This document shows positions 8,868 through 18,301 of a stretch of 64,000 nucleotides of DNA, one piece after another (the first letter of the stretch is position 1; every line of letters begins with the position of its first letter). Source of the DNA: Acidimicrobiales bacterium (lineage in GTDB: Bacteria; Actinomycetota; Acidimicrobiia; Acidimicrobiales; JAJPHD01); NCBI GenBank assembly GCA_050744225.1, contig JBOGGT010000076.1, forward strand, positions 63,503 to 127,502. The letters are read 5' to 3'. The notes beneath the pieces are model-generated. The model was not told the DNA's origin. It saw only the letters and a program-made list of their open reading frames with translations, and made no database searches. The position numbers and the translations under genes are program-made.

Positions 8868-9097
8868 CCTGGTGAACCTGCGGGCTAAGCTCGGCCTGGT
8901 CGACACAAATGGGAGTGGGACCAGGAAGCCGGTGTGATTCCGGCACGGTGCCGCCACTGTGTCCGGGGAGTGAGCCTCCGATTGTGCCACGGTCTGCGAG
9001 GGCCGCAAGGCGGGGGGGAGCGTAGATCCGGGAGTCAGGATACTGACCGCTCCCTCCGCTACGACGGGGCGTTAGCACCCCGGAGGGAGGCAACACC
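8868..9097 (+). promoter_or_regulatory. cobalamin (B12) riboswitch with an SD-sequestering expression platform
   Basis: The core AGGAAGCCGGTGTGATTCCGGCACGGTGCCGCCACTGTG carries the B12 box GCCACTG. The downstream GCCACGG...GGGCCGCAAGGCGGG matches the conserved 3' half. CTCCCTCCG (9050-9058) can pair with CGGAGGGAG (9081-9089), which is the SD of the TTG start at 9098. Confidence 0.8.
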
Positions 9098-9625
9098 TTG
9101 AGGTTGACCAAGTGGCGCAGGCCGTTTGGGTTGGGCTGGTTGGGCTGGTTGGGCTGGTTGGGCTGGTTGGGCCTAGCCGTCCTGGCCTCGGCGTGCGGGG
9201 GAGCCACCGGAGCGCCCCCCGGATCGGCGGCCCCTGGGTCGTCTAATTCTTGCCCGAGCGCCGTGGGGGTGGTGATCCAGTCCTCCCCCTCCGAGTCGAC
9301 GTCGGAATGCGTGCCCGTGGGTGCCAGTGGCGAGATCAGCGGGCTGGCTGCTCTCAAAGCAGCAAAGGTCGAGATCGGGACCCAGAGCTACAGCTTCGGC
9401 CTGGCGATCTGCCAGGTGGACGAGGTCCCGGCCCACTACTCCCAGTGCCTTCCCGCAGGCAAGCCCTCCTGGGCGCTGTTCGTATCCCGACACGGTGGCG
9501 CCTGGGCGTCGGCTTCTACTGGGGTCAGCGGCATCACCCTCAAGGCCTCCGACTCCCTCGGGCTACGCTACGACTCACCCAAGGGCACGGCCTTGCCTCC
9601 TTCGGTAGCGCCCCCCTCGATTTGA
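9098..9625 (+). CDS. secreted lipoprotein, DUF4430 (transcobalamin-like) candidate
   Basis: Signal peptide plus ...LASAC lipobox. The C-terminal pattern SWALFVSRHGGAW....GITLKASDSLGLRY resembles DUF4430. First gene behind the B12 riboswitch. Confidence 0.55.
   Translation: MRLTKWRRPFGLGWLGWLGWLGWLGLAVLASACGGATGAPPGSAAPGSSNSCPSAVGVVIQSSPSESTSECVPVGASGEISGLAALKAAKVEIGTQSYSFGLAICQVDEVPAHYSQCLPAGKPSWALFVSRHGGAWASASTGVSGITLKASDSLGLRYDSPKGTALPPSVAPPSI
9125..9173. repeat. 9-nt tandem repeat x5 (ttgggctgg)
   Basis: Read directly. It encodes (GWL)5 within the signal-peptide h-region. Confidence 0.95.
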
Positions 9626-9663
9626 GGCAAGCTCGTTTGAGGCAAGCTTGTTTGAGGCAAGGA
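9621..9663. repeat. 15-nt tandem repeat x3 (tttgaggcaagctYg)
   Basis: Read directly. Unit 1 contains the lipoprotein TGA stop. Units 2 and 3 add in-frame TGAs at 9638 and 9653, and each unit has a GAGG. Confidence 0.95.
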
Positions 9664-9672
9664 TCTTTCAGG

Positions 9673-10581
9673 TTGAGCAGACCGGCTGCGCTCGCCCTCT
9701 GGGTGCTCGCGGGAGCCTCGATGGCCCTGGCGAGCAACCAACCCATGGTCCGGGCCCTGGTTCTGGTCGCAGCGTGGAGCCTGCTCGCCAGGAGGCTGGT
9801 TCCCGGGCGTCACCTGCGCCCTCTGGGCATCGGGCTCGCCGTCGCCGGCGTGCTTACGGTGGCCTTCAACACCCTAGGGAGCCATAGCGGGGCGACCGTG
9901 CTGGCGTCAGCGCCCAGATGGCTGCCCTTGGTGGGTGGGCCGCTCACGCTCGAAGCCCTCGCCTACGGGGCCGGCATTGCTCTGGGACTCACCGCAGCTG
10001 TGTCCGCTGCAGCAGCCCTCTCGCTGGTCATCGAGCCCAGCGATCTGGTGGATGCCCTGCCCTGGTGGCTTGCCCACACTGGGGTGGCGGTGGGTGCGGC
10101 GCTCAACCTGGTCCCTGGTGTTGCCGCCAGCTACGTGTCGGTACGCGACGCCCAGCGGCTCCGGGGCTGGGCGTCCCCGCACCCCGCGCACCCCTCGCGT
10201 GGGCGCCGACCCGTGAGGGGACGGCGCGTCCCCGGGGTCAGGGCCACCCGGGGGGTGCGGGGCATTGTCGATCTGGTGGTGCCTGTCCTGCTCGGGGCCA
10301 TCGAGTCTTCCGTAAGGCTCGGAGAGGCCATGGAGGCGCGGGCATTCGGTTCCGGGGCGCGCCACGCCTACCTGGACCCCCAGCGCACCTCGACGAACCT
10401 GGTCGTGGGCGTCGGTTCGGTGCTGGCCCTGTCCGGTTTCGCCACCCTGCGGATCAGCGGGCTCATCGGAGCCTGGTATCCCTACCCAACCCTGGCCCTA
10501 CCGGCGCTCGGGGCGACCGTCATCGGGCCCCCCGCGATGTTGTGCCTACTGGGAGCCTTGATCCAACCGGGGCCGGCCTGA
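9673..10581 (+). CDS. energy-coupling factor transporter transmembrane subunit (EcfT/CbiQ-like)
   Basis: Part of ORF 9250..10581: polytopic, with the ...SVRDAQRLRG... arginine-rich coupling region typical of EcfT. The TTG start is tentative. Confidence 0.6.
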   Translation: MSRPAALALWVLAGASMALASNQPMVRALVLVAAWSLLARRLVPGRHLRPLGIGLAVAGVLTVAFNTLGSHSGATVLASAPRWLPLVGGPLTLEALAYGAGIALGLTAAVSAAAALSLVIEPSDLVDALPWWLAHTGVAVGAALNLVPGVAASYVSVRDAQRLRGWASPHPAHPSRGRRPVRGRRVPGVRATRGVRGIVDLVVPVLLGAIESSVRLGEAMEARAFGSGARHAYLDPQRTSTNLVVGVGSVLALSGFATLRISGLIGAWYPYPTLALPALGATVIGPPAMLCLLGALIQPGPA

Positions 10582-12074
10582 TGGACGCCGGGGGTGGGTC
10601 ACGGGCCAGGTTCGAGCACCTCTGCTACTGGTACCCGGCGCTCTCAGGTGGGTTTCCCGCCGACCCCGCCACTTCTGGACTGTTCGACGTCAGCCTAGAA
10701 CTGGGAGCCGGGCTCAACCTGATAGGCGGGGACTCGGGGGCTGGCAAGTCCACCTTGCTCCGTGTCCTGAACGGACTGGTGCCGCACTTCTACGGTGGTC
10801 GGATCGCGGGGAGTGCGAGCGTTGCCGGCATGGACGTGGCCTCGACCCCGCCCAGGATTCTCGCACGCCACGTCGGGTTTGTATTCCAAGAAGCCGAGGC
10901 CGGATTCGTGCGCGGGACGGTTGCCAGGGAGGTTGCCTTCGGTCCCGAGAACCTTGGCTTTGCCCCTGGCGCGGTGGAGCGCCTGGTCGCAGACGCCCTC
11001 GAACTGGTCGGGGTCGCCGGTTTGGCGGCGCGCCGGCTGAGCACCTTGTCAGGCGGAGAGCGCCAGCGGGTGGCCCTGGCCGGAGCGCTGGCGGCCGCTC
11101 CCGAGGTGGTGGCACTCGACGAGCCCAGCTCCCAGCTCGACCAGGCAGGAGTCGCGGCGCTGGTTCGCATCCTGGAAAGCCTCGCTGCGCAGGGCCACAC
11201 GGTGGTGGTGGCGGAGCATCGCCTCCGCCCGTTCCTCAACGGCGCGCAGGCGTCCCGGCAAGTGACCATGGTGGCCGGCCGTCCGGCGCCGCCCAGTGCT
11301 GTCACCAGCCCCCCGACGCCTGCCCCTCCGATGCCCGCCCCCCCGACCCCCGCCCCCCTGACCGCCCGCAGCCCGACCCCCCGCCCGCATCGGCGCCGTT
11401 CGACCGAGGGCCGGACCAAGCCGGTCGAGTCTTTGACAGGCTGGGCCACATCGGGCCTGACCGCTGGCATCGGCAACCGGGCAGTGCTTGAAGGCGTCGA
11501 GTTGTACGGGTCACCAGGCCAGATAGTGGTGTTGAGCGGCCCCAACGGATCGGGCAAGACCACCCTGTTGAGGACGATCGCCGGCCTGTTGCCCCCACTC
11601 GAAGGCCAGGTGATCAGGCCCGTGTGTACTTCGGCGCACGGTCGCCCGGTTGGGTACCTGCCCCAGGACCCACACAAGTTGCTGCACCGGCGCAGCGTCC
11701 TGGCCGAGGTGAGACAGACCCTGCGCTGGTCCCGGTTGGTGGATGACCCGATGCTCATCCTGCGCCAGCTGGGAATGGATGGACTGGCCGACACCGACCC
11801 GAGGGACCTCTCGACGGGCCAGCGCCAGCGGGCGGCCTTGGCGGCGGTCCTGGCCGGTCGTCCGGCGCTGGTGTTGTTGGACGAGCCGACGCGGGGGATG
11901 GATGCAGCTTCCCGCATGGCGCTGGTCACGACCCTCGGCGAGCTGGCTGCGGACGGTTCCTGCGTGATTCTGGCCACCCACGACTACGAGCTGGCCGAAC
12001 AGCTCGGCGACCGGATAGCTCTCGTGGACGGCGGCCGGACCCGGCTGGTGCAACCGGAACGGCTGGGAGGGTGA
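10581..12074 (+). CDS. ECF/ABC transporter ATPase, two fused ATP-binding domains
   Basis: Two Walker A motifs (GDSGAGKST, GPNGSGKTT), two signature/Walker B sets (LSGGERQRV...LDEPSS; STGQRQRA...LDEPTRGMD) and a Pro-rich linker. The ATG shares its A with the upstream TGA (1-nt overlap). Confidence 0.85.
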   Translation: MDAGGGSRARFEHLCYWYPALSGGFPADPATSGLFDVSLELGAGLNLIGGDSGAGKSTLLRVLNGLVPHFYGGRIAGSASVAGMDVASTPPRILARHVGFVFQEAEAGFVRGTVAREVAFGPENLGFAPGAVERLVADALELVGVAGLAARRLSTLSGGERQRVALAGALAAAPEVVALDEPSSQLDQAGVAALVRILESLAAQGHTVVVAEHRLRPFLNGAQASRQVTMVAGRPAPPSAVTSPPTPAPPMPAPPTPAPLTARSPTPRPHRRRSTEGRTKPVESLTGWATSGLTAGIGNRAVLEGVELYGSPGQIVVLSGPNGSGKTTLLRTIAGLLPPLEGQVIRPVCTSAHGRPVGYLPQDPHKLLHRRSVLAEVRQTLRWSRLVDDPMLILRQLGMDGLADTDPRDLSTGQRQRAALAAVLAGRPALVLLDEPTRGMDAASRMALVTTLGELAADGSCVILATHDYELAEQLGDRIALVDGGRTRLVQPERLGG

Positions 12075-13027
12075 GCGACACGGCCCGAGGCCCGAACCCG
12101 GCGCGGAGCCTCATGGCACCCCCGGCCCGGCGCCCCACGGCGCCCCCGGCGCCCCCGGCGCCCCCGGCGCGGAGCCTCAGCCTGCCGGGGCTGATGTGGG
12201 TTGCTTCTGCGCTCGGCCTGGCCCTGTTCGCCTGGCCCTTCCTCGGCGTGGGCGCGCCGACAGCGGGAGCAGCCACGGCGGCAGCGGTGGGAACGCTGGT
12301 TGCGCTGGTGGTCATGGAGCTGGCCACCCGGCGCCTGGACGCTCGCAGCTTCGCCCTCCTGGTTTCGCTGTCTGCCATCGACGCGGGCGCCAGGGCGGCG
12401 TTGGTCTCGGGGATCGGGGGCTTCAGCCCCATCTTCTTGCTGATCCTGTGCGGTGGGTACGTGTTCGGACCCAGCTACGGGTTCCTCCTCGGCGCCACTT
12501 CCCTGCTCGTCTCTGCCCTGGTCACCGGGGGGCTGGGTCCCTGGCTCCCCTACCAGCTCTTCGCCGTCGGCTGGGTGGGGGTTGCCGCTGGCTGGGTCGG
12601 GCAATGGCGCCGACGGAGGGCAGTCCAACGGAGGGGCCGCCAACGCCCCAGCGCCGAGGCTTGGCCGTCGGCGCTGGACGTGGGCTGGCTGGCGGCGGTG
12701 GGGGTGGTCTCGGGATACGCCTTCGGTGTGATCATGGACCTGTGGGACTGGACGTTTTTCTCGGCTTCTCCAGGCCTGGGCTTCAAGCCCGGGATGGGCC
12801 TCGGTGTGTTGGCGGCGCACTTCGGGCGCTTTTACCTGGCTACCTCTGCGGTCTACGACTCCTTCCGTGCGGTGGGCAATGCGGTGCTGGTGGTCGCCCT
12901 CGGATTTCCGATCCTTGTTGCGCTGGCCAGGTTGCGGTCCGGCCTCACCTTCGAGGTCATCTCCCTCGAACAGGCGCTCCCCGAACTGGATGCCGGGAGG
13001 CAGGCCCACCCGTCCAGGCCCGGATAG
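12071..13027 (+). CDS. ECF-transporter substrate-capture (S) component candidate
   Basis: Polytopic membrane protein, last gene of the riboswitch-ECF operon (GTGA overlap). The family assignment is by context and topology only. Confidence 0.5.
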   Translation: MSDTARGPNPARSLMAPPARRPTAPPAPPAPPARSLSLPGLMWVASALGLALFAWPFLGVGAPTAGAATAAAVGTLVALVVMELATRRLDARSFALLVSLSAIDAGARAALVSGIGGFSPIFLLILCGGYVFGPSYGFLLGATSLLVSALVTGGLGPWLPYQLFAVGWVGVAAGWVGQWRRRRAVQRRGRQRPSAEAWPSALDVGWLAAVGVVSGYAFGVIMDLWDWTFFSASPGLGFKPGMGLGVLAAHFGRFYLATSAVYDSFRAVGNAVLVVALGFPILVALARLRSGLTFEVISLEQALPELDAGRQAHPSRPG

Positions 13028-13166: not shown

Positions 13167-14132
13167 TCAGGGTGACTGCAGGGCGGCGTCGATGCGCTCG
13201 AGCACCTGGCGGTTCAGCCTGGGGACCACCTCCAGGGCGGTCAGGTTCTGCTCCACCTGCTCGACCCGGCTGGCACCGGTGATTACCGACGAGACGTGCG
13301 GGTTGCGCACGCACCAGGCGATGGCCAGCTGGGCCAGGCTGGATCCCAGCGATCCGGCCACCTCGCCCAGGCGGCGGACCTTGGCGTTGGACTCGGGGTC
13401 GGTGAGGGAGCTGCGCAGCCACTCGTAGCCAGCCAGCGCCGCCCGGCTCCCGTCGGGGACCCCGTCCAGGTACTTGCCGGTGAGCAGTCCCGAGGCCAGC
13501 GGGCTCCAGGTGGTGAGGCCAAGCCCGACATCCTCGTAGAGGGGGGCGAGCTCGGTCTCCACCTTGTCCCGGTGCAACAGGTTGTACTGGGGCTGTTCGA
13601 CCACCGGTTTGCGCAGGTGGTGGATCTCGGCGATCTCCCAGGCCTCGCGGATGTCTTCGGCCGACCACTCCGAGGTCCCCCAGTAGAGCGCCTTGCCCGA
13701 GCCCACTATGTCGCTCATGGCCCACACCGTCTCCTCTATGGGCGTCTCCGGGTCGGAGCGGTGGCAGAACAGGAGGTCAACGTAGTCGAGGCCCAGCCGC
13801 TCCAGCGAGCCCTCGACGGCTTCGAGGAGGTACTTGCGGTTGAGGGTCTGGTGGGTGTTGGGGTCGTCGTGCAGCCCCCAGTACAGCTTGGTCGAAACCA
13901 CGTAGCTGTAGCGCGGCCAGCGTTGCCGGGCGATCACCGCCCCCATCAGGCGCTCGGACTCACCCCCGCCGTAGGCCTCGGCGTTGTCGAAGAAGTTGAT
14001 CCCCCCCGCCCGGGCCGCCGCCATGCAGCGCCCTGCGAGGTCCTCGTCCAGCTGCGGCCCGAAGGTGACCCACGAGCCGAGCCCCAACACGCTCACCTTC
14101 AACCCGGAGCTTCCGAGGCGGCGGTACTCCAT
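13167..14132 (-). CDS. aldo/keto reductase (Kv-beta-subunit-like)
   Basis: [21 protein letters not shown]...[14 protein letters not shown]...STK are typical AKR motifs. Confidence 0.85.
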
Positions 14133-14142
14133 CTCGCCCTAC

Positions 14143-15579
14143 CTACCCTTGTCGGAGCGAGCCAAACTGGCCCCTGGTCGGCTCGGCACAACAAAACCAC
14201 GATTCGCTCAGGTGCGGCCTGGTAGCGCCAGTCCGGGCAGTGGCAACGGGCAGGGAGCGGCCCGCCGCGGCTCCCACCAGCTCGGCCACCCGCTCGAAGG
14301 TGTCGAAAGGATCCTCACCGATGGCAGCAGCGTGCTCGGCGATGGAGGCCAGATCGCCCTGCAGGGCGTCAATCGCGGGGTCCGGGTGGTGCCAGGTCCA
14401 GCCGAGCGCCTCGGAATCGTAACCCTCCAAGTGTGGAGCCAGGTCCGAGCGCCCCAGCAGCAGCGACCCCTGCGGCAGCAACAACCGGATGGAGTAGTGC
14501 ACCGGGTCCACGCCTGCGACCAGGTCGTGCGCAGCCACGAAGGAGACCAGGTCCGCCACCTGGCCGGCGGTCGTCCAGGGGGTGAAAGGCAAGAAGGACG
14601 GCCGGATCTCGATGCCGTGCCCCCGCAGCAGGTGGATCGCCCTGGCTGCGTCGGCGACGGTGTGCCCCTTGCCCAGGCGCACCAGGGTCGCCTCGTCCAC
14701 CGACTCCAGCGCCGAGACCACGAACAGGCACCCGGAGCGGGCCAGCTCCGCCCACACGGTGTCGTGGCGCAGGATATGGGTGACCTTCACCGTGGCGTCG
14801 AAAGTAACCTCGGGAAACGCGCCGTGGATCTCAGCGGCCACAGCCAGTGCGTGCGCCGGCCTGTTTAGGAAGTCTGGATCGCCGAAGGTCAGGTGACGTG
14901 CCCCACTTGCGACCAGCGCGCCCACATCCGCCATCAGCGTGGCCAGCTCGACCTTGCGGGTCCTGCCGTCGTAGACCACCGGCACCGGGCAGTGCCCGCA
15001 GCGATGCGAGCAGCCGTGTGTCGACTCCACGTAGCCGACCAGCCGGCGCTCGTCGCCCACCACGAGTCGGGCGTAGCGCTCCAGCGGGGGGAGCAGGTGC
15101 CGGGCGGGAACCCTGAAGGGCGACGGCCTCAGCTCGACCGACACCGCCCCCGCCGCCCCCGCCGCCCCCGCCGCCCCCGCCGCCCCCGCCGCACCGTCCC
15201 CTCCTGCGGCCAGGGCGTCTACCCAGGCGACCAGGGCGGGTTCGTACTCCCCGGCGATCACGCGGTCTGCGACCGAGCCGATCGTGAGGTCCTGGCTCAC
15301 CGGGGCGTACAGGCCGTACAGGCAGATCGGCAGTCCGGGTCGTTGCACCCGCATGGATCGCGCGGCGGGTATGGCCAGGCGCATGGCGGTGTGCATGGGC
15401 ACCGAGAACCCCACTGCCTCCGCCCAGGCGAGCGTCTCGTCACCCCCGTCCACCCAGGGTTGGACCGCCAGGTCCCAGCAGCGCACCTGGTGACCGGCCC
15501 TGAGCAGGGCGGCGGCGGGGGAGGCGAGGTGCAGGGGCTGGTGCCCCAGTTCGTAGGTGGACACCAGCAGGACTCGCAC
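14143..15579 (-). CDS. B12-binding-domain radical SAM protein with a C-terminal CCAEP tail
   Basis: The GTG at 15579 gives VRVLLVSTYELGHQP (B12-binding-like N-terminus). The CSHRCGHC CX3CX2C cluster motif is present. The C-terminus is ...SWFCCAEPTRGQF. Confidence 0.8.
   Translation of the reverse strand: MRVLLVSTYELGHQPLHLASPAAALLRAGHQVRCWDLAVQPWVDGGDETLAWAEAVGFSVPMHTAMRLAIPAARSMRVQRPGLPICLYGLYAPVSQDLTIGSVADRVIAGEYEPALVAWVDALAAGGDGAAGAAGAAGAAGAAGAVSVELRPSPFRVPARHLLPPLERYARLVVGDERRLVGYVESTHGCSHRCGHCPVPVVYDGRTRKVELATLMADVGALVASGARHLTFGDPDFLNRPAHALAVAAEIHGAFPEVTFDATVKVTHILRHDTVWAELARSGCLFVVSALESVDEATLVRLGKGHTVADAARAIHLLRGHGIEIRPSFLPFTPWTTAGQVADLVSFVAAHDLVAGVDPVHYSIRLLLPQGSLLLGRSDLAPHLEGYDSEALGWTWHHPDPAIDALQGDLASIAEHAAAIGEDPFDTFERVAELVGAAAGRSLPVATARTGATRPHLSESWFCCAEPTRGQFGSLRQG
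15144..15192. repeat. 9-nt tandem repeat x5 (ccgcccccg)
   Basis: Read directly. It encodes (GAA)n inside the radical SAM protein. Confidence 0.95.
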
Positions 15580-15691: not shown

Positions 15692-18301
15692 ATGGACGCC
15701 AACCGGCTGCGGGCCGCATTCACCAGCTTTTTCGAGGAGAGGGGGCACCTCGCCGTCCCGTCGGCGAGCCTGATCCCCCATGACCCGACCCTGCTGTTCA
15801 CCGTGGCCGGCATGGTGCCCTTCAAGGGGTACTTCGCCGGGGACGAGGTCCCTCCCTCCCTCCGGCTGGTCTCGGTGCAGCGCTGCCTGCGGGTCAGCGG
15901 CCGGCACGACGACATCGAGGCCATAGGGCGCTCCAGCCGGCACCTGACCTTGCTGGAGATGCTGGGCAACTTCAGCTTCGGTGACTACTTCAAGTCGGAC
16001 GCGATCCCCTGGGCGTATGAGCTGGCCACGGAGGTGCTGGGACTGGACCCCGAGCGCATCTGGGTGACGGTCCACGACGGCGACTACGAGGCGGAGGCGA
16101 TCTGGGCGGATGGCGTGGGGTTTGCCCCGGAGCGCATCCAGCACATGGGCGAGGACAACTTCTGGCGCATGGGCGAGACCGGGCCGTGCGGGCCGTCTTC
16201 GGAGCTCTTCTGGGACAGAGGTCCCGCTTATGGCCCTGACGGCGGGCCGGCCAAGGGCTCCGACGAGCGCTTCGTCGAATTCTGGAACCTGGTCTTCACC
16301 CAGTACTACCAGCGCCCAGACGACACCCTGGTGGAGCTCCCCCGGAAAAACATCGACACCGGCGCCGGCCTCGAGCGGATCCTGTGCATCACCCAGGGGG
16401 TGGATTCGGTCTTCGACACCGACGTGATGGCGCCCCTGGTGGCTGCCGCCTCGGAGGTCACCAAACGCAAGTACCGGGAGGATGCGCCGACCGATGTCCG
16501 GCTGCGGATCCTGGCGGACCACGCCCGCTCGGCCAGCTTCTTGATCAGCGACGGGGTCTTCCCTTCCAACGAGGGCCGGGGATACGTGCTGCGCCGGATA
16601 ATCCGCCGTGCGGTTCGCCACGCCCACCAACTGGGAGTCAGCGCCCACGTCATGGCCCCACTGGCGGTGGCTGTGGCCGAGGTGATGGGGACGGCCTATC
16701 CCGAGGTGGCCCGCCAGGCCGACTTCGTGCAGGGGATCCTGGATCGGGAGGAGGCCCGGTTCCGCCAGACCCTGCGCACCGGGCTGGCGATCCTGGAGGC
16801 GGAGCTGGGCGATCAGGGCGAGACCCTGTCCGGGGCCGTGGCCTTCCGCCTGCACGACACCCATGGGTTCCCGATCGAGGTGACCCGGGAGATCGCGGCG
16901 GAGCACGGGGTGGCGGTCGACCAGGACGGCTTTGCTGCAGAGATGGCCGCCCAGCGCGCCCGGGCGCGCGCTGCGGGGGTGGCTGGGGGCGCCGACCCGG
17001 ACCGGAGCGCCCGCTACCGCGAGGTGCTGGACCAGTTTGGGACCACCGACTTTCGTGGGTACGAGGAGTGCGCGACCACCGGGCACATTCTTATGATCAT
17101 CGATGGTGGCACCGAGGGCCAGGTCGAGGTGTTCTTGGACCGGACCCCGTTCTATGCCGAAGGGGGTGGCCAGGTTGGCGACACAGGGGTGATCACCACC
17201 GGCACGGGGAGCGCGCAGGTGCTGGACACCACATCGGCCCTGCCGGGCCTGACCCGCCACGTCGCGGTGGTCGCCGGGGAGCTGCGCCCCGGCCAGGAGG
17301 CTCGGGCGGAGGCTGACCAGTCGAGACGGGCGGCAATCCGGCGCAACCACACCGCCACCCACCTGTTGCAGTGGGCGCTGCGCCAGGTCCTGGGCGCGCA
17401 CGTGGCCCAGCAGGGGTCGCTGGTGGCCCCTGACCGGTTGCGCTTCGACTTCAGCCACTTCGGGGGCCTCACCCCGGCGGAGATCGAGCGGGTGGAGGAC
17501 CTGGTCAATGCGGCAGTCCTGGCCAACGATGCGGTGGTGACCGAGGAGCTGTCCCGGGCGGAGGCGGACGCGGCCGGCGCGATCGCCTTCTTCGGGGACC
17601 GCTACGGCGAGCGGGTGAGGGTGGTGCGTGCCGGGCCGTCGACGGAGCTGTGCGGGGGTACCCACGTTGGCTCGCTGGGAGCCATCGGGCTGGTCAAGGT
17701 GGTCTCGGAGGCCTCCATCGGGGCGAACACCCGCCGGATCGAGGCGCTCACCGGAAACGGATCCCTGGAGTGGTTGCGCGAGGAGGAGCGGCTGCTGGCG
17801 CGCGCCGCGCAGCTGCTGAGGGCTCCCTCGCCCGCCGAGGTTCCCGAGTGGGTGGAGCGCCTCGCCGAGCGCGCGAGGGCCGCATCCGACGAGGTGAAGG
17901 CCCTGCGTGCCCGTGCGACCGCGACCGAGGCCGCCGTGCTCGCGGGAGGGGCCGTGCCGGCGGGAGGGGCCGTGCCGGCGGGCTTGGTGGTGGTGCGGAG
18001 GGACGGGGTCAGCCGGGATGGCCTGCGGGACCTGGCGGTGGCGGTCCGGGACCACCCCGGGATCGACGCGGTGGTGTTGATCGGTTCCCCCGAAGGCCAG
18101 GGCGTTGCGCTGGTGGCCGCGGTGGCCAAGGGGTCGGGCCTCGTGGCTTCGGAGCTGATCGCAGGCGCGGCACGCGCTGTCGGGGGGGGCGGGGGACGGG
18201 ACCCGGAGCTGGCCATCGCCGGCGGCCGGGACCCGGCACGCATCGACGAGGCGTTGGACATGGTCCGGGCAAAGCTCGGACTGGTTGGTAGCCGTAGTTG
18301 A
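15692..18301 (+). CDS. alaS: alanine--tRNA ligase
   Basis: MDANRLRAAFTSFFEERGH..., FTVAGM, GNFSFGDYFK, HTATHLL and the C-terminal DHHA1-like region. Confidence 0.95.
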   Translation: MDANRLRAAFTSFFEERGHLAVPSASLIPHDPTLLFTVAGMVPFKGYFAGDEVPPSLRLVSVQRCLRVSGRHDDIEAIGRSSRHLTLLEMLGNFSFGDYFKSDAIPWAYELATEVLGLDPERIWVTVHDGDYEAEAIWADGVGFAPERIQHMGEDNFWRMGETGPCGPSSELFWDRGPAYGPDGGPAKGSDERFVEFWNLVFTQYYQRPDDTLVELPRKNIDTGAGLERILCITQGVDSVFDTDVMAPLVAAASEVTKRKYREDAPTDVRLRILADHARSASFLISDGVFPSNEGRGYVLRRIIRRAVRHAHQLGVSAHVMAPLAVAVAEVMGTAYPEVARQADFVQGILDREEARFRQTLRTGLAILEAELGDQGETLSGAVAFRLHDTHGFPIEVTREIAAEHGVAVDQDGFAAEMAAQRARARAAGVAGGADPDRSARYREVLDQFGTTDFRGYEECATTGHILMIIDGGTEGQVEVFLDRTPFYAEGGGQVGDTGVITTGTGSAQVLDTTSALPGLTRHVAVVAGELRPGQEARAEADQSRRAAIRRNHTATHLLQWALRQVLGAHVAQQGSLVAPDRLRFDFSHFGGLTPAEIERVEDLVNAAVLANDAVVTEELSRAEADAAGAIAFFGDRYGERVRVVRAGPSTELCGGTHVGSLGAIGLVKVVSEASIGANTRRIEALTGNGSLEWLREEERLLARAAQLLRAPSPAEVPEWVERLAERARAASDEVKALRARATATEAAVLAGGAVPAGGAVPAGLVVVRRDGVSRDGLRDLAVAVRDHPGIDAVVLIGSPEGQGVALVAAVAKGSGLVASELIAGAARAVGGGGGRDPELAIAGGRDPARIDEALDMVRAKLGLVGSRS

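Follow-up and report, generated by a model that had tools for sequence, protein, structure and literature searches.

A radical SAM protein with a Cys-Cys (CCAEP) tail from an Acidimicrobiales bacterium and its kinship with ArsL

Introduction

What does an enzyme do whose family is named after its last residues, and what is the cysteine pair in that tail for? The question is raised by one locus in a 64,000-nucleotide (nt) stretch of an Acidimicrobiales genome (GenBank assembly GCA_050744225.1, contig JBOGGT010000076.1, positions 63,503 to 127,502; this whole stretch is called the window), in which the gene for a radical S-adenosylmethionine (SAM) protein with a Cys-Cys tail is followed by a gene for an aldo/keto reductase (AKR). 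The original prediction, made from the sequence alone, saw here a cobalamin-binding enzyme acting with the AKR in a two-enzyme pathway and took the vicinal cysteines for a redox or relay site. We report that the radical SAM protein belongs to the CUAEP/CCAEP-tail family, in which U is selenocysteine (Sec), that many relatives encode Sec at the second tail position, and that the closest characterized homolog is ArsL, from which we draw a tentative proposal for the chemistry of the family.

Results

Assignment of the radical SAM protein to NF040546

The radical SAM gene and its parts are as follows (window coordinates; aa, amino acids; SECIS, selenocysteine insertion sequence).

14143 to 15579, minus strand: radical SAM gene, GTG start at 15579, TAG stop at 14143-14145, 478 aa
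15205 to 15579, minus strand: Rossmann-like N-terminal domain (about residues 1-125), with a sub-threshold match to PF02310, an alignment to ArsL, and the fold of AprD4
15144 to 15192, minus strand: perfect tandem repeat, 9 nt x 5.4, coding the (G-A-A)n stretch AAGAAGAAGAAGAAGA of the interdomain linker
14989 to 15012, minus strand: radical SAM motif CSHRCGHC (residues 190-197), in which the CX3CX2C cysteines C190, C194, and C197 are the ligands of the [4Fe-4S] cluster
14176 to 14205, minus strand: tail motif E459-S-W-F-C463-C464-A-E-P-T468; the codon of the second Cys, TGT at 14188-14190, is TGA (Sec) in relatives
14157 to 14175, minus strand: decayed, relic-like SECIS-type hairpin (AGGGGCC-AGUUU-GGCUCGC), 5 of 7 pairs, coding part of RGQFGSL
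14133 to 14142, minus strand: 10-nt spacer between the radical SAM stop codon and the ATG of the AKR gene

The protein ends in ...SWFCCAEPTRGQFGSLRQG (also given as ...HLSESWFCCAEPTRGQFGSLRQG), with the codons TGT TGT GCC GAG CCG, and translation places C463-C464-A-E-P-T 15 residues ahead of the stop. The sequence facts of the original prediction (478 aa, the CSHRCGHC motif, the tail codons, and an AKR gene 10 nt on) all hold; the minus strand had been left unstated. A longer, TTG-initiated reading of this open reading frame (ORF), 608 aa in length, was rejected, as the homologs all begin MR(V/I)LLVSTYELGHQP, which fits the GTG start. The 478-aa protein scored 50.7 bits on Pfam Radical_SAM, and its AlphaFold2 (AF2) model had a mean per-residue confidence (pLDDT) of 90.7 and a global score (pTM) of 0.90.

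On the NCBIfam model NF040546, the CUAEP/CCAEP-tail radical SAM (seleno)protein family, the protein scored 548.5 bits against a curated cutoff of 500 (E = 1.2e-164), the match running over residues 3-473 and taking in profile positions 1-467 of 468. Every feature of the family (a score above the cutoff, CX3CX2C, and the C-[U/C]-A-E-P tail) is present, and we regard it as practically certain that the window protein is a Cys-Cys member of NF040546. The NCBI family named in the original prediction is real, and the protein is in it by profile search. Its lack of an assigned function is also borne out, since Haft et al. (2022, bioRxiv, 10.1101/2022.07.06.499078) call the family uncharacterized and name it as one of a small number of selenoprotein families that have a Cys-Sec dipeptide; CU motifs, they add, are rare and found in Hg and organometal proteins. 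The protein thus falls into no subfamily characterized already, and the gene is an unremarkable new member of a family that has been named and flagged.

Relatives are numerous: 5783 homologs at E <= 1e-10 were found among the candidates scored in a 90%-identity cluster database and 364 clusters at E <= 1e-30 in a 50%-identity representative library, and relatives occur in at least 454 species-level genomes. The best 80 loci come mostly from metagenome-assembled genomes of Acidimicrobiia and Thermoleophilia, with a few Burkholderiales and one Limnocylindria. Given the domain scores and the thousands of homologs, the radical SAM and AKR ORFs are real genes. A sequence search of the PDB with the radical SAM protein returned no solved close homolog (best E = 4.9e-5). 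The comparisons below draw on the best 120 homologs, on 89 related loci (82 with a complete tail and 3' end), and on 67 diverse cluster representatives; genes on GC-rich loci were called with a filter on GC content by codon position (GC3 plus GC1 > GC2).

Alternation of Cys and Sec in the tail and a covarying hairpin

The stretch ...RPRL[S/T]E[P/A/S]WFC stood at the same place in all 120 best homologs, followed by C-[A/S]-E-P(-T) in 96 of them; in the other 24 the annotated protein ended there, as it did, at W[F/Y]C, in 30 of the 67 representatives. The DNA behind these shortened calls reads TGA and then, in frame, GCx GAG CCC ACC, that is, C-U-A-E-P-T, with the true stop 8 to 14 codons on. 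Wherever the tail was complete (82/82 loci) the motif was kept, the second position being TGA in 37 loci and Cys (TGY) in 45. Across alignments of relatives the invariant tail residues are E, W, F/Y, C, C/U, E, and P, and no cysteines are conserved throughout the 67 representatives except those of the cluster (three) and of the tail (two). C190, C194, and C197 are invariant in these representatives and in two ArsL proteins as well. A third conserved tail or core Cys that might serve as a metalloid ligand was sought and rejected: C86 and C284 are conserved among close relatives only, not family-wide.

Starting 12 nt past the UGA, the TGA forms carry a 7-bp stem with the consensus GAGGGCC-AGUUC-GGCCCUC, perfect in 32 of 35 distinct sequences and with 6 of 7 pairs in the remaining three. 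In a 24-sequence alignment of the hairpin 98.8% of cells pair, compensatory changes affect 5 of the 7 pairs, and in one locus (L082) the entire stem is swapped to ACUCACC/GGUGAGU; these values were reached by none of 500 shuffles and by no slid control. We take the 12-nt spacing and the form of the stem to match bacterial SECIS geometry. Single-sequence folding past the tail gave Z-scores of -0.84 to +0.19 in this GC-rich DNA, the hairpin being clear only from the comparison of many loci. The original prediction had asked whether relatives encode TGA at the second Cys together with a SECIS element, and whether the tail is conserved in orthologs; the 37 TGA loci with their covarying hairpin, and the full conservation in homologs and complete loci, answer both in the affirmative.

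In Cys forms the median is 4 of 7 stem pairs and a full stem never occurs; the window has 5. The hairpin codes the peptide E-G-Q-F-G-P-L in Sec forms and R-G-Q-F-G-S-L in the window; because the hairpin is coded there, this stretch is near-fixed in Sec forms and variable in Cys forms. A neighbor-joining tree nests the window as (L001_U,(L006_U,(WIN_C,(L004_C,L005_C)))). Because of this nesting and the 5-pair remnant, the Cys-Cys tail of the window looks like a fairly recent Sec-to-Cys replacement that has left a decaying SECIS relic, and further independent Cys/Sec switches appear elsewhere in the tree. No tRNA, tRNA-Sec included, was found in the window. The tail has a pLDDT of about 77-84 in the AF2 model and is, as modeled, probably docked rather than disordered. 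Alternation of Cys and Sec with a covarying hairpin fits a position whose chemistry matters.

Kinship with ArsL

The second-best model for the window protein was that of ArsL (NF040542), at 259.3 bits over residues 3-409, below its cutoff of 450, and the next family reached only 42 bits. True ArsL proteins in turn scored about 340 bits on the CUAEP model, so that mutual cross-scores lie at 259 to 345 bits. One ArsL-family protein (P0269, 656 bits on NF040542) is 32% identical to the window protein and collinear with it over 419 aa (E = 5e-65). Judged from these sequence comparisons, the CUAEP/CCAEP family is the sister group of ArsL. The window protein lacks several hallmarks of ArsL: its score is under the cutoff, there is no third tail Cys, and its neighbors (alaS, the AKR gene, and an energy-coupling factor [ECF] transporter) form no ars operon.

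ArsL is so far the sole CX3CX2C radical SAM enzyme shown to make a 3-amino-3-carboxypropyl (ACP) radical rather than 5'-deoxyadenosyl. Its reduced cluster cuts the C-gamma-S bond of SAM, giving methylthioadenosine and an ACP radical or Fe-C organometallic species that is joined to As(III). ArsL has been found to copurify with As, and its C-terminal RCCLKC tail holds arsenite through three cysteines; deletion of this tail abolished product formation with retention of SAM cleavage, and a variant tail with the vicinal pair only (MCCA) was the most active on methylarsenite. The discoverers predicted that further such enzymes are hidden in the superfamily. According to the abstract of PMC8552651, arsL is placed in ars operons beside arsM and arsQ.

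The cobalamin question

The B12-binding-like N terminus of the original prediction has a basis in a similarity to PF02310, which is sub-threshold (24.2 bits, gathering score 32.1), and the models of class B families (HpnR, ladderane, QCMT, PhpK, and BchE) gave at most 42 bits, far under their cutoffs. A Foldseek search with the AF2 model put AprD4 first (PDB 6fd2; E = 9.7e-20; TM score, 0.64-0.68; 16-18% sequence identity), with the cobalamin-binding TsrM and OxsB second and third, close behind, so that the fold match by itself leaves the question undecided. A stronger argument comes from homology: the N-terminal domain of the window protein aligns with the N terminus of ArsL from residue 2, and ArsL has been fully reconstituted without cobalamin. 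A 2026 review likewise notes that ArsL homologs lie in the B12-radical SAM similarity network yet bind no cobalamin, and groups AprD4 with them in this respect. Because the N-terminal domain is homologous to that of a cobalamin-free enzyme, the cobalamin label is probably wrong, though not disproved; the similarity stands, and its reading as a cofactor site is doubtful, both the best fold match and the homolog being cobalamin-free.

ATP-grasp partner and other neighbors of relatives

In about 60 of the 89 loci a gene for an ATP-grasp protein (~430 aa) immediately precedes the radical SAM gene and is read in the same direction; of the first 86 loci, 65 have one in the flank. It is adjacent even in L086, a locus of low GC whose radical SAM protein shares just 39% identity with that of the window. 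The partner carries PF13535 (ATP-grasp_4), ATPgrasp_N, and LAL_C2 domains, the composition of an L-amino-acid ligase; among PDB entries it matches the L-amino acid ligase BL00235 best (120 bits) and BacD next, with a weaker similarity to LysX and RimK. Such a partner fits an alpha-amino acid as the product of the radical SAM enzyme.

Less frequent neighbors are DUF169 (18 loci), a convergently transcribed SaoD/DsrE-family protein (NF040913; 12-15 Solirubrobacterales loci), and a PF11307/Rv0495c-family protein (6 loci). The remaining recurrent neighbors are housekeeping genes (IspDF, DisA, SpoU methylase, MsrA, CoaX, CarD, MscS, and alaS), with a periplasmic binding protein in addition. In one Acidimicrobiales clade (L064, L068, L072, L074, and L075) a DUF169 gene replaces the upstream ATP-grasp gene on the same strand, with nadB, nadC, and coaX nearby. 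One genome (contig CAVZBW010000005.1) holds two paralogous ATP-grasp and radical SAM cassettes, L046 and L049, about 146 kb apart; each is of the Cys type, with C-C-S-E-P in its tail and DUF169 nearby. The Cys-rich PF11307/Rv0495c-family gene occurs near the radical SAM gene in L086 (3677-4450), L069, L063, L001 (13178-13876), L009, and L010, and directly downstream of it in three distant loci; in sister clades of the window it follows an M20 peptidase gene and, in L001, also a gene for a Cys/Met-metabolism pyridoxal phosphate enzyme. In one Sec-form clade (L025, L029, L035, L048, and L060) the radical SAM gene is followed by MsrA and carD genes in the same orientation and preceded by IspDF, DisA, and SpoU methylase genes, an arrangement that may be plain synteny or a redox link.

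The AKR gene and its operon

In the window the gene that follows is an AKR gene, and beyond it a transporter operon runs toward it.

13167 to 14132, minus strand: AKR gene, 321 aa, AKR6-type (Kv-beta-like), NADPH
9098 to 13027, plus strand: ECF transporter operon coding a small exported protein, a CbiQ/EcfT-like component, a double ATP-binding cassette ATPase, and a weak ECF S-component
8884 to 9065, plus strand: cobalamin riboswitch RF00174 (Rfam, 76 bits), outside the radical SAM-AKR operon

The AKR scored 213.7 bits on PF00248 (Aldo_ket_red) and 332.4 bits on TIGR01293 (Kv_beta; cutoff, 365.4), and it matched AKR6D1 (8hw0, 361 bits) and Kv-beta2 (331 bits) over the full length in the PDB. 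D49, Y54, K82, and H124, read from the sequence, are presumably the catalytic residues, by what is generally known of AKRs. No site resembling a promoter or terminator turned up in a scan between the radical SAM and AKR genes, which are probably co-transcribed and translationally coupled.

Besides the window, L001, L004, L005, L087, L088, and L089 have the AKR gene directly after the radical SAM gene; with the window they make up all 7 informative loci of a clade of relatives at 65-79% identity (the contigs of L006 and L007 end too early and were left out); spacing in Cys-form relatives is 0-13 nt, or the genes overlap, as in L088. By tblastn against the first 83 related loci the window AKR matched only L001, L004, and L005, and no AKR was found in the flanks of the other 80 related loci. 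A family-wide partnership was accordingly rejected. Of the two-enzyme pathway first envisaged, the conserved operon stands and the generality does not: comparison of gene neighborhoods across taxa, which had been suggested as a check, shows the AKR restricted to one clade and ATP-grasp as the usual partner elsewhere. The AKR is best seen as a clade-specific accessory that may act on a by-product or merely share the promoter.

The order alaS (divergent), radical SAM-AKR, and ECF transporter (convergent) is common to the window and at least L087 and L089. The transporter operon sits after the riboswitch and converges on the AKR gene, and its gene arrangement recurs beside radical SAM-AKR in the same two loci. 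An Rfam search, which covered the window only, gave this riboswitch as its sole hit and none ahead of the radical SAM gene.

Other features of the locus

The 9-nt repeat in the linker (100% matches, score 98, Tandem Repeats Finder) takes in residues 135-141, the only segment of the AF2 model with a pLDDT below 50. It is missing from the majority consensus of a 58-sequence alignment and looks like a recent in-frame slippage expansion. A small ORF after the riboswitch (about 9120-9170, plus strand) begins MRLTKWRRPFGLGWLGWLGWLGWLGLAVLASACGG, a (GWL)4 repeat in an apparent lipoprotein signal peptide, and the opposite strand reads PNQPNQPNQPNQ. On the other side of the locus, the mechanically called alaS ORF starts at TTG 15602 (plus strand), 22 nt from the radical SAM start; a start at the in-frame ATG at 15692 (MDANRLRAAF..., with GGAGG ahead) is more likely and would leave a divergent intergenic region of ~112 nt.

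Discussion

Proposed chemistry and alternative explanations

We propose that ACP is transferred, as in ArsL, to a soft atom on the Cys-Cys/Sec pair, a scheme that, taken as a whole, we hold to be plausible but short of probable. The enzyme would be independent of cobalamin, and its reduced CX3CX2C [4Fe-4S] cluster would cut the C-gamma-S bond of SAM to yield methylthioadenosine and an Fe-bound ACP species. A mobile tail (...RPxL[S/T]ExW[F/Y]-C-[C/U]-[A/S]-E-P-T) would swing into the active site with a soft acceptor on its thiol/thiol or thiol/selenol pair. That acceptor may be a metalloid or a chalcogen; we give no preference to Se or S carried there over another thiophilic metalloid, and arsenite is possible, without support from gene context. 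Joining of ACP to the acceptor atom would give a gamma-substituted 2-aminobutanoate, an amino acid that most lineages would hand on to the ligase-type ATP-grasp enzyme encoded upstream; in the lineage of the window, where the ATP-grasp gene is missing at the locus, the AKR6-type reductase is co-transcribed instead. The mode of SAM cleavage, the tail as acceptor carrier, and the nature of the product are inferred by analogy with ArsL.

Several points weigh against this scheme. The basis on which ArsL cleaves C-gamma-S rather than C5'-S has not been established, and no sequence test can show that it is shared. The tails differ, WFC[C/U]AEPT of the family offering two chalcogens and FKRCCLKC of ArsL three cysteines; so do the cluster motifs, which are CxxxCxHCP in the family and CxxxCxYCS in ArsL (H196 and P198 in place of Tyr and Ser). 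Because residues close to the active site that are invariant in the family (M62-H63-T64, H306, T333, and P369) also differ from those of ArsL, a substrate common to both seems unlikely from the alignments. No ars genes (arsM, arsQ, etc.) were among the recurrent neighbors of the related loci, so arsenite is not indicated as the acceptor. A tblastn search of the whole 64 kb found no ATP-grasp, DUF169, SaoD/DsrE-like, Rv0495c-like, or M20 gene in the window, and the AKR that is there has no obvious role in ACP-transfer chemistry. Finally, a literature search for a functional study of the family, or for the biochemistry of any member, found none.

The main rival, which we consider distinctly unlikely, keeps canonical 5'-deoxyadenosyl chemistry and makes the tail a redox relay, the Cys-Cys or Cys-Sec pair shuttling reducing equivalents or an H atom to the active site and cycling via a disulfide or selenenylsulfide. 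Precedents for redox tails are thioredoxin reductase, with GCUG in mammals and SCCS in Drosophila, and the C-terminal Cys pair of class I ribonucleotide reductase. Alternation of Cys and Sec in a vicinal C-terminal pair is the thioredoxin reductase pattern, there are two chalcogen ligands only as against the three of the ArsL metalloid site, an NADPH-dependent oxidoreductase is co-transcribed in the clade of the window, and MsrA is directly downstream in some relatives. Yet the tail of the closest characterized homolog, ArsL, contains CC and binds substrate instead of serving as a redox shuttle, the family-wide partner is an amino-acid ligase and not a thioredoxin or a reductase, and no AKR is known to reduce disulfides or selenenylsulfides. 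The redox or relay site assigned to the pair in the original prediction is weakened by the kinship with ArsL, which had been missed and gives a more specific lead. That kinship could also be taken further, to an enzyme isofunctional with ArsL with As(III) or methylarsenite on its CC/CU pair and with hydroxyarsinothricin or amino acids like arsinothricin as products; the ligase of other lineages would build these into a dipeptide, in the way that phosphinothricin underlies bialaphos. The families are sisters, methylarsenite is a good substrate for ArsL with the CC-only tail variant, As(III) is bound tightly by vicinal dithiols and selenol-thiols, and the ligase partner fits a Trojan-horse peptide. 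We nevertheless think this very unlikely, with 259 bits against a cutoff of 450, no third Cys, and IspDF, DisA, CarD, MsrA, CoaX, alaS, and the like in place of ars genes as recurrent neighbors; nor does a family that is found in at least 454 species genomes, and there mostly beside housekeeping genes, resemble a specialized antibiotic cluster.

The tail could instead be the substrate, its Cys/Sec being self-modified by alkylation or crosslinking, or the ATP-grasp enzyme ligating onto a tail Glu (compare LysX/LysW and RimK/S6) so that the tail becomes a covalent carrier. About 15 conserved residues (RPRL[S/T]ExWFC[C/U][A/S]EPT) exceed the needs of a simple metal-binding pair, E459 and E466 are invariant, and the ATP-grasp partner has a weak similarity to the LysX and RimK families. 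But self-modification would mean a single turnover, the partner best matches ligases of free amino acids (BL00235, 120 bits; LAL_C2), and the window and several clades have no ATP-grasp gene nearby; the chances of this explanation are low. Least supported, and slimmer still in our estimate, is the original prediction taken in full, a cobalamin-dependent class B enzyme (a methyltransferase, for example) in an obligatory two-enzyme pathway with the AKR. It can appeal to the weak PF02310 match and to TsrM and OxsB as second and third fold matches, to the tight coupling of the two genes (10 nt, and overlap in L088) with the AKR kept in 7/7 informative clade loci, and to the adjoining ECF transporter under cobalamin-riboswitch control, the genes of which are arranged alike in at least L087 and L089. 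Against these stand a PF02310 score below threshold and class B models at 42 bits or less as against 259 for ArsL, activity of ArsL without cobalamin and a cobalamin-free AprD4 as the top fold match, and the lack of the AKR in the other 80 related loci; the transporter, being convergently transcribed, is a separate unit.

Significance

The proposal of ArsL-like ACP transfer can be widened: the CUAEP/CCAEP family may form a second, much larger branch of ACP-transferring radical SAM enzymes, which would make a C-Se, C-S, or C-metalloid bond on an atom delivered by the tail, pass the product to a ligase for a dipeptide, and have been rewired to an AKR6 reductase in the lineage of the window. In this wide form we think it rather unlikely. 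Its scale would be thousands of sequences in at least 454 species genomes, with Sec in about 40% of members, and, if true, a gamma-substituted 2-aminobutanoate and a dipeptide metabolite, both unknown, would be widespread in soil Actinomycetota. If the inferred chemistry holds, noncanonical radical SAM chemistry reaches beyond arsenic, to an unknown metabolite in abundant uncultured soil Actinomycetota; if it fails, the gene is one more member of a family annotated as of unknown function. In the literature searched we found no report of the sister link to ArsL as a mechanistic lead, of the ATP-grasp partner, of the site, covariation, and relics of the SECIS hairpin, or of the lineage-restricted AKR operon. 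These four render the family attractive as a target that lends itself to direct tests, and the window itself adds little more; its Cys-only form can be expressed in Escherichia coli without selenocysteine machinery.

Comparison with known systems

AprD4 resembles the window model in its two-domain architecture with a cobalamin-free Rossmann-like N-terminal domain; it differs as a radical SAM 1,2-diol dehydratase with canonical 5'-deoxyadenosyl chemistry on an aminoglycoside and in having no Cys-Cys/Sec tail. In thioredoxin reductase, too, a flexible C-terminal extension bears a vicinal pair, Cys-Sec or Cys-Cys, with Sec and Cys interchanged between lineages, but the fold and cofactors of that enzyme are unrelated, so that the likeness is an analogy only, and nothing here points to a flavin or an NADPH-linked disulfide relay. 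The AKR is like the AKR6 family in its similarity to AKR6D1 and Kv-beta2 and in its D-Y-K-H residues, and unlike it in falling under the TIGR01293 cutoff and in having no known channel partner. Compared with the rest of NF040546, the peculiarities of the window copy are the perfect (GAA)n linker repeat, an operon with an AKR gene, and no nearby ATP-grasp gene. ArsL, for which no Sec form is known among the sequences compared here, has the same domain order as the window protein: a Rossmann-like N-terminal domain, the radical SAM core, and a short tail with CC after an aromatic residue.

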